This document shows positions 1,422-1,496 of a stretch of DNA of 37,405 nt, one piece after another; the stretch's first letter is position 1, and each line of letters begins with the position of its first letter. The stretch lies in IMG/VR virus record IMGVR_UViG_3300027971_000007; one strand, 5' to 3'. This DNA comes from a virus. Under the pieces are notes generated by a model. It saw only the letters and a list, made by a program, of their open reading frames with translations, was not told where the DNA came from and ran no database searches. The translations under genes and the position numbers were made by a program.

Positions 1422-1496
1422 CTATCGATTCATAACATACATTGTCACTTCGAAACCGAAGCGTAACTCGGTGACGCTAGGTTGAGTCCATTTCAT
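1422..1496 (-). CDS. pqqA: PqqA-like peptide (pyrroloquinoline quinone precursor), 24 aa
   Basis: The reverse-strand translation is [24 protein letters not shown]. This matches the PqqA signature W..P...(D/E)LR.G.EVT.Y...R, including the Glu-x3-Tyr pair. AAAGGAG lies 6 nt before the ATG, TATAAT lies upstream at 1536..1531, and a hairpin lies downstream. The gene is below the 60-aa cutoff of the ORF track. Confidence 0.85.
   Translation of the reverse strand: [24 protein letters not shown]

Follow-up and report, generated by a model that had tools for sequence, protein, structure and literature searches.

A selectively maintained pqqA gene in a podovirus-like phage genome, and the wide, mostly unannotated occurrence of pqqA in phages

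The gene encoding PqqA, the precursor peptide of the cofactor pyrroloquinoline quinone (PQQ), was identified in the 37,405-nt sequence of an uncultured virus (IMG/VR record IMGVR_UViG_3300027971_000007), referred to hereafter at its full length as the window. The coding sequence occupies positions 1422..1496 on the minus strand (24 codons and a TAG stop) and has the attributes of a real gene, namely a start codon, a ribosome-binding site and constraint at the protein level. Its match to the PqqA family is far beyond chance, and the open reading frame (ORF) is a genuine, selectively maintained pqqA. It is probably a functional phage gene, an auxiliary metabolic gene that would feed PQQ synthesis in the host, a reading in which expression, processing and benefit are inferred. 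Viral pqqA itself was already known; new are the scale of its occurrence and the annotation gap, as the gene is far more widespread in viruses than published work indicates, and is more often left without annotation.

The minus-strand ORF from 1496 to 1422 and its translation were exactly as predicted by a first-pass annotation made from the sequence alone, and the assignment of the peptide to PqqA was upheld by both family models. The window peptide scored 43 bits against Pfam PF08042 (gathering cutoff 21.1, E = 4e-11) and 40.4 bits against the NCBIfam equivalog TIGR02107 (cutoff 20), and all seven phage peptides tested passed both hidden Markov models (HMMs). Queries of PHROGs v4 and the PDB with the peptide returned no PqqA family and no chain, respectively. 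The 24-residue PqqA contains E16-V-T-M-Y20, that is, the Glu-x-x-x-Tyr pair that is cross-linked during PQQ synthesis (Glu16 and Tyr20). Both residues were unchanged in 87/87 viral copies, a set picked by peptide pattern, and in 32/32 copies of a set selected by TerL. In its size, its W..P..(D/E).R.G.EVT.Y pattern, its Glu-x3-Tyr pair and the HMMs that recognise it, the phage peptide resembles the PqqA of canonical operons (pqqABCDE of Klebsiella, Acinetobacter and Methylorubrum), from which it differs in that its gene is unlinked to pqqBCDE and would depend on host enzymes.

The gene lies in a divergent control region (1133-2330) between two genome modules, as the first unit of the minus strand. 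A Shine-Dalgarno (SD) sequence, AAAGGAG (1503..1509, minus strand), is located 6 nt before the ATG (1496-1494), and further upstream there is a sigma-70-type promoter (1531..1559, minus strand) consisting of AAGACA (1559-1554), a 17-nt spacer and TATAAT (1536-1531), with 10/12 matches and a -10 hexamer that ends 34 nt before the ATG. Downstream, a predicted intrinsic terminator (1372..1403, minus strand) is formed by an 8-bp hairpin with five G-C pairs (1403-1382), which begins 18 nt past the stop codon and is followed by TGTTATTTAT, with the T-rich tail at 1381-1372; folding of the hairpin gave a dG of -17.9 kcal/mol (z = -4.25 against shuffles). The SD sequence, the TATAAT and the 8-bp hairpin were thus all found at the distances given in the first-pass annotation. 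With its own near-consensus sigma-70 promoter, SD site and hairpin terminator, pqqA is, as judged by these signals, a self-contained expression unit. A perfect-consensus promoter at 1157..1185 (minus strand) is predicted to drive the next unit, comprising a 182-aa ORF, a 194-aa ORF and then TerL across the circular junction of the genome, which marks pqqA as a separate upstream unit. On the opposite strand, another perfect-consensus promoter (1273..1301, plus strand) faces the plus-strand module, so that transcription from it would cross the pqqA hairpin and then pqqA itself in antisense; it opposes the pqqA promoter in a predicted convergent arrangement and is possibly regulatory for pqqA.

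Whether related phages carry the gene at the same locus, a question raised in the first-pass annotation, was addressed with relatives picked by TerL regardless of pqqA (376 TerL relatives in IMG/VR, of which 80 were fetched), the locus test being restricted to the 40 whose sequence extends 1700 nt or more upstream of TerL. A pqqA was present 0.9-2.6 kb upstream of TerL in 28 of these 40 relatives, 27 copies being complete and one (L214) cut by the contig end. The other 12 contained neither the gene nor decayed remnants of it, and this absence identifies pqqA as an accessory, dispensable gene rather than an essential one. The first-pass annotation had named a reading frame broken in related phages as evidence against a gene; instead, the frame was intact in all 31 complete copies from relatives and in the window's own copy. 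Among the 26 distinct nucleotide sequences of TerL-selected pqqA, differences per synonymous site (pS) amounted to 0.73 and those per nonsynonymous site (pN) to 0.136, a ratio of 0.19. Entropy was 8.9, 6.2 and 23.7 at codon positions 1, 2 and 3, and both alternative frames contained stops in all 26. The pN/pS of viral copies (0.12-0.19) was similar to that of cellular copies (0.165). On this comparative evidence, pqqA is an accessory cassette under purifying selection. Its junction is a variable hotspot for accessory cassettes. In one relative without pqqA (L182, 95% TerL identity), a 90-aa HNH-endonuclease-like ORF was observed at the equivalent site (4881-5153), upstream of the homologue of the 182-aa ORF.

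The transcription unit was aligned across 13 close relatives. The -10 TATAAT was invariant and GACA of the -35 element was conserved; the leader was variable, yet each copy had a purine-rich site, and changes in the ORF fell chiefly at third positions. The terminator stem read either ..CCAGG/CCTGG.. or ..CCAGC/GCTGG.., a compensatory G-C to C-G swap, with an invariant T-tail. Peptide alleles and terminator variants were differently combined among phages with 92-97% TerL identity, from which we infer recombination within the cassette. The position of pqqA is not inherited across the wider group, as shown by its different placement in a sister clade with about 72% TerL identity (L017, L021, L022, L024 and L039), where it lies between the portal and scaffold genes and is co-oriented with them. 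With the next gene only 10 nt away in L017, the sister-clade pqqA probably shares the expression of the late structural operon instead of forming a unit of its own.

A tblastn search of 50,697 deposited phage records resulted in 12 matches. Ten of these were in phages Venkman, MEP301, MEP401 and MEP402, four Melnitz isolates, P19250A and an uncultured Manatee Spring podovirus, so that all the genuinely phage-borne copies in the collection came from OM43/LD28 phages except for the one from the spring-water podovirus, whose host is not recorded. The remaining two were contigs of 'Acinetobacter phage MD-2021a'. CAKLQF020000010.1 is a stretch of bacterial chromosome with fur, ppk, pqqABCDE and a dipeptidase gene, mislabelled as phage, and was rejected; the second contig (CAKLQH020000055.1, 13 kb), which gave the same match, was set aside alongside it. 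All seven phage genomes examined had an intact pqqA ORF with an ATG and an SD-like site, and an intact copy is carried by all six cultured OM43/LD28 phage types found (Venkman, P19250A, MEP301, Melnitz, MEP401 and MEP402). None of the seven genomes has the gene annotated as pqqA, the region being either empty or overlapped by a 'hypothetical protein' on the opposite strand. Venkman, MEP301, MEP401 and MEP402 (for MEP402 according to the hit table) have no feature under the pqqA ORF, and in Melnitz the sole call over it is such an opposite-strand protein. The copy in P19250A, which infects LD28, is likewise intact and unannotated (KX815270.1, 28082-28153). Genomic contexts were unrelated, and included recombination genes, module boundaries, tRNA neighbours (in a myovirus) and a genome end. 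A likely reason why viral pqqA has been overlooked for the most part is that an ORF of 23-24 codons escapes gene callers and phage protein libraries.

A pattern scan of IMG/VR extended this to at least 593 confirmed contigs with a stand-alone pqqA, in many genomic contexts. Contamination of these matches by host operons was ruled out, since tblastn with PqqB-E found no homologue in any of 80 viral loci fetched from these contigs, the flanks covered reaching 10 kb on contigs that were long enough. An SD-like motif preceded 84 of 85 viral copies, and a terminator-like hairpin was present in 41% of viral copies as against 6% of random positions. One contig from an 'uncultured bacterium' bin (L163, CAIYXB010000030.1) shared 174 bp at 93% identity with P19250A, covering pqqA and its downstream flank. 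In spanning the flank, this similarity differs from that of other cellular loci, and the 12-kb sequence may come from a phage whose contig was placed in a metagenome-assembled genome (MAG), or from a prophage.

The great majority of the cellular peptides closest to the phage PqqA belonged to Methylophilaceae (Methylotenera, Methylophilus, Methylopumilus, Methylobacillus and OM43-like MAGs), and the Methylophilaceae consensus peptide was present in 52 loci. A C-terminus of YVMN(K/R) is the signature of this family, and the window peptide ends in YVMN(R), whereas copies from Methylococcaceae end in ..YIYNR. The window allele differs from the Methylophilaceae consensus at 6/23 aligned positions and carries one additional residue, a Lys that follows the initiator Met; the sequence closest to it is the viral copy of L008. 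Four relatives of the same lineage (L169, L171, L179 and L192) encode exactly the consensus peptide, and at the nucleotide level identity with a Methylotenera copy reaches 96%. A low-G+C bacterium of the Methylophilaceae is therefore the most probable host of the window phage. A methylotroph host and an auxiliary metabolic role, both suggested in the first-pass annotation, are favoured by the Methylophilaceae-type peptide and by the copies in OM43/LD28 phages.

Orphan pqqA genes of Methylophilaceae offer the nearest cellular counterpart. They encode the same peptide type with the (K/R) ending, identical in sequence to the peptides of some phage relatives, stand alone away from pqqBCDE, and are associated with a terminator-like hairpin in 72 of 86 cellular copies. 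Fewer than two of pqqB-E were found within 6 kb in 62/80 cellular pqqA loci, at least two were adjacent in the other 18 (including loci of Methylotenera, Methylophilus and Methylophilaceae MAGs), and several cellular genomes contributed multiple loci. These proportions agree with the published finding that Methylophilaceae have 3-12 copies of pqqA but a single pqqBCDEFG set (PMC4109929), and for both reasons the lack of pqqBCDE beside a phage pqqA is not disqualifying. Unlike the cellular genes, the phage copy is situated in a phage control region, and its promoter and terminator lack homology to the flanks of cellular copies. The window pqqA had about 86% nucleotide identity to cellular copies over 50 nt, with a longest exact match to a cellular locus of 23 nt, and similarity was confined to the ORF, the promoter and terminator being phage-specific. 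Recent capture from a host was rejected for the window lineage because the similarity stops at the ORF.

The phage origin of the window, as claimed at the outset, was substantiated by its gene content. Positions 1-127 are an exact repeat of 37279-37405, and this 127-bp terminal overlap indicates a circular assembly with a unit of 37,278 bp, representing a complete genome; across the circular junction, TerL (37332..36076, minus strand) lies directly downstream of the 194-aa ORF (639..55, minus strand). A minus-strand module (37332-16475) encodes TerL, portal, scaffold, major capsid protein, a 1284-aa fibre, tail-tube proteins and internal proteins, and a plus-strand module (2331-16281) encodes primase/helicase, a family-A DNA polymerase (in two ORFs), exonucleases and a class II ribonucleotide reductase. 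The genome is that of a podovirus-like phage. It contains no pqqB, pqqC, pqqD or pqqE according to tblastn with PqqB-E, no real gene with a CxxxCxxC motif, and hence no radical S-adenosylmethionine (SAM) protein of that kind, as the first-pass annotation had noted; Pfam and PHROG matches of the window genes included no PQQ-pathway signal, and no gene for methanol oxidation or PQQ synthesis other than pqqA was found. Neither a phage RNA polymerase, nor an integrase or other lysogeny gene, nor a tRNA was found in the window genome. Perfect promoters of the form TTGACA-N16-18-TATAAT occur six times, against 0.08 expected, and together with the lack of a phage RNA polymerase this indicates that the genome relies on host sigma-70 RNA polymerase.

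In the mechanism that we consider likely, host sigma-70 RNA polymerase would produce a monocistronic transcript some 150 nt long (about 1524 to about 1375, minus strand), which would be translated from the strong SD site. The 24-residue phage peptide would then enter the host pathway, being bound by PqqD and cross-linked between Glu16 and Tyr20 by the radical-SAM enzyme PqqE, after which the PqqF/G proteases would trim it and PqqB and PqqC would complete PQQ. The PQQ-dependent methanol dehydrogenase (XoxF/MxaF), and hence the energy supply, could in this way be sustained during infection of Methylophilaceae of the OM43, LD28 or Methylotenera type. These steps follow the established pathway, in which PqqD binds PqqA, PqqE links its Glu and Tyr, and trimming precedes the final reactions of PqqB and PqqC (PMC7678222, PMC9851590). 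Of the pathway's components, which otherwise are enzymes that turn over, PqqA alone is consumed one-for-one per cofactor, and the phage would therefore supply the part likeliest to run short as host expression declines. All invariant residues of PqqA are retained in the phage copy, and its promoter is of the host type. In a methanotroph, transcripts of pqqA exceed those of pqqB-E about 30-80-fold (PMC3615186), in an improved producer strain peak pqqA expression coincided with the largest rise in the rate of PQQ synthesis (PMC9851590), and in OM43 the PQQ-dependent XoxF is the most transcribed gene (PMC5120137). As expected of an auxiliary metabolic gene, pqqA is located inside a bona fide viral genome, between phage promoters and at the same locus in relatives.

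Several observations weigh against this function. The accessory status of the gene, with 12 of the 40 close relatives lacking it, is one. The window allele (MKW..ELRF..NR) is uncommon, with best full-length cellular matches that include Methylococcaceae-type peptides, and the host assignment is indirect, drawing on peptide type, relatives and a G+C content of 36.5%. The perfect opposite-strand promoter reading antisense through pqqA may restrict or modulate its expression. As to PqqA supply being the limit, overexpression of pqq genes in production strains led to only modest gains in PQQ (PMC9851590), and no expression, proteomic or PQQ measurements for a phage pqqA were found in the literature searched.

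Among the alternatives, the one that survives best, although we regard it as unlikely, is that pqqA is a near-neutral passenger (a 'moron'), a cassette of about 200 bp that is often picked up from hosts with 3-12 copies, costs almost nothing and confers no benefit. The patchy distribution among close relatives, the hotspot occupied by an HNH-like ORF in L182 and the different positions in different phage lineages would all be expected of such a passenger. It is harder to reconcile with a peptide retained at a pN/pS of 0.19 while synonymous sites approach saturation, with the intactness of every copy and the lack of remnants, and with the conservation of a phage-specific promoter and terminator, the stem having changed in a compensatory manner. 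That the gene has been kept repeatedly, in at least eight unrelated lineages of phages, also argues for selection.

Less probable again is a role outside PQQ supply, in which the transcript would be the active product, through antisense pairing or interference involving the early promoter on the other strand (1273-1301), or the peptide would have a PQQ-independent target. The convergent arrangement in the window phage, with a perfect plus-strand promoter directed antisense through pqqA and its hairpin, is what such a role would use; variation concentrated at third positions, however, indicates that the peptide, rather than the sequence of the RNA, is under selection, and an antisense role specific to this locus cannot explain the spread of the gene to lineages with other contexts, such as the sister clade with its co-oriented copy in the structural operon.

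The first-pass annotation had offered a decoy or sponge as its second option, whereby the peptide would occupy host PqqD/PqqE and so lower PQQ synthesis or divert radical-SAM capacity. Nothing specific speaks for it, apart from the fact that the phage lacks the downstream enzymes, so that pqqA alone cannot make PQQ. We consider it very improbable, since the peptides of close relatives that are identical to the host consensus can behave only as an ordinary substrate, Glu and Tyr never vary in either the pattern-chosen (87 copies) or the TerL-selected (32 copies) set, and the strength of selection is like that on cellular copies; nor would curbing the main energy enzyme of the host be obviously useful to a lytic phage. 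That pqqA is the relic of an attP-like attachment site, comparable to the tRNA gene fragments of temperate phages, is scarcely credible, for although the many host copies could serve as targets and an exact cellular match reaches 23 nt, the window has no integrase or other lysogeny gene, and the copy is a complete gene with promoter, SD site and terminator rather than a 3' fragment, only about 86% identical to cellular copies over 50 nt.

The first-pass annotation knew of no established description of phage-borne pqqA, whereas Coutinho et al. (2020, Microbiome, PMC7678222) had reported a viral PqqA, the earliest record of such a gene, in the Lake Baikal population VP_266, with a predicted Methylophilaceae host. 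VP_266 resembles the window phage in the presence of a PqqA gene on a predicted Methylophilaceae virus, for which a PQQ boost to methanol dehydrogenase was proposed; it differs in being T4-like and in also carrying methanol dehydrogenase and peptide deformylase genes (PMC7678222), whereas the window phage has a 37-kb podovirus-like genome. The gene was treated there as a feature of one population, and isolate P19250A was said to have none of these genes (PMC7678222), a statement contradicted by the intact pqqA of P19250A. A 2026 study counted viral pqqA, pqqD and pqqE among auxiliary metabolic genes of phosphorus cycling. The term 'pqq' appears nowhere in the papers on Venkman, MEP301, Melnitz and MEP401/402, and recognition of how general viral pqqA is was not found in the literature searched.

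A functional analogy may be drawn with psbA (encoding D1) of cyanophages, where the phage carries the component of the host energy machinery that is used or turned over fastest, and the energy supply can thereby outlast host shut-down. There is no sequence or mechanistic relationship between the two, PqqA being a consumed substrate peptide and not a subunit, and for psbA, unlike viral pqqA, expression and benefit in cyanophages are documented. On balance we lean slightly towards the broader view that pqqA is a hallmark auxiliary gene of Methylophilaceae phages, gained or kept independently in at least eight unrelated lineages and at different genomic positions, as psbA is characteristic of cyanophages, and that its value stems from PqqA being the only gene product of the pathway consumed stoichiometrically.

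OM43 and LD28 methylotrophs are abundant methanol consumers in coastal seas and lakes and gain energy via a PQQ-dependent dehydrogenase. Should it be routine for phages of these bacteria to carry pqqA, methanol oxidation may be kept up or increased by infection in a considerable fraction of cells, giving viruses an influence on one-carbon cycling. The gene could also serve as a simple host-prediction marker for phages of methylotrophs, and it exemplifies a meaningful gene lost to annotation thresholds, being unannotated or unnamed in every isolate genome checked. The idea is directly testable, because several phages are in culture with their hosts (Venkman or Melnitz with H5P1, the MEP phages, and P19250A).

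The window phage belongs to an uncultured lineage with no annotated close relative, given that its major capsid protein has less than 40% identity to any deposited phage record and that megablast of window positions 1-6000 against cultured and deposited phages returned no match. The 182-aa ORF downstream of pqqA (584..1132, minus strand), a syntenic anchor in relatives, has homologues with 88% identity in L008 and 66% in L054; it had no match in Pfam or PHROG. Besides the two in the control region, perfect promoters are located at 7899-7927 (minus strand), 11343-11370 (plus strand), 25078-25106 (minus strand) and 34092-34120 (minus strand), the first of which is antisense within the plus-strand module.

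The intergenic gap holding pqqA contained no known RNA family or tRNA. Between the plus-strand promoter and the pqqA terminator there is a long (TA)-rich low-complexity tract (1302-1375), which has remained AT-rich in relatives while varying in sequence; it could be an unwinding element, an origin element or a promoter UP region. A further hairpin (1572-1610, minus strand), whose stem sequence varies among relatives, is situated just upstream of the pqqA promoter and is followed by the motif TCCTCGCTTA, kept as TCCTCGCTTACT in 7/13 sequences and as TCCTCGCTTATC in an eighth. A stretch of about 730 nt (1600-2330) has neither an ORF of at least 60 aa nor an Rfam match, is 75-79% identical at the nucleotide level in relatives, and may contain small early genes or an RNA.

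Within the modules, the family-A DNA polymerase is split over ORFs at 9066-10223 and 10408-11133, which are separated by a gap of 184 nt. The plus-strand module begins with a 517-aa acidic, Cys/His-rich protein (2331-3884) that has weak RING-finger-like matches and no PHROG family, and the 1284-aa fibre-like protein (27681-31535) is repetitive and rich in Ala, Thr, Ser and Asn.

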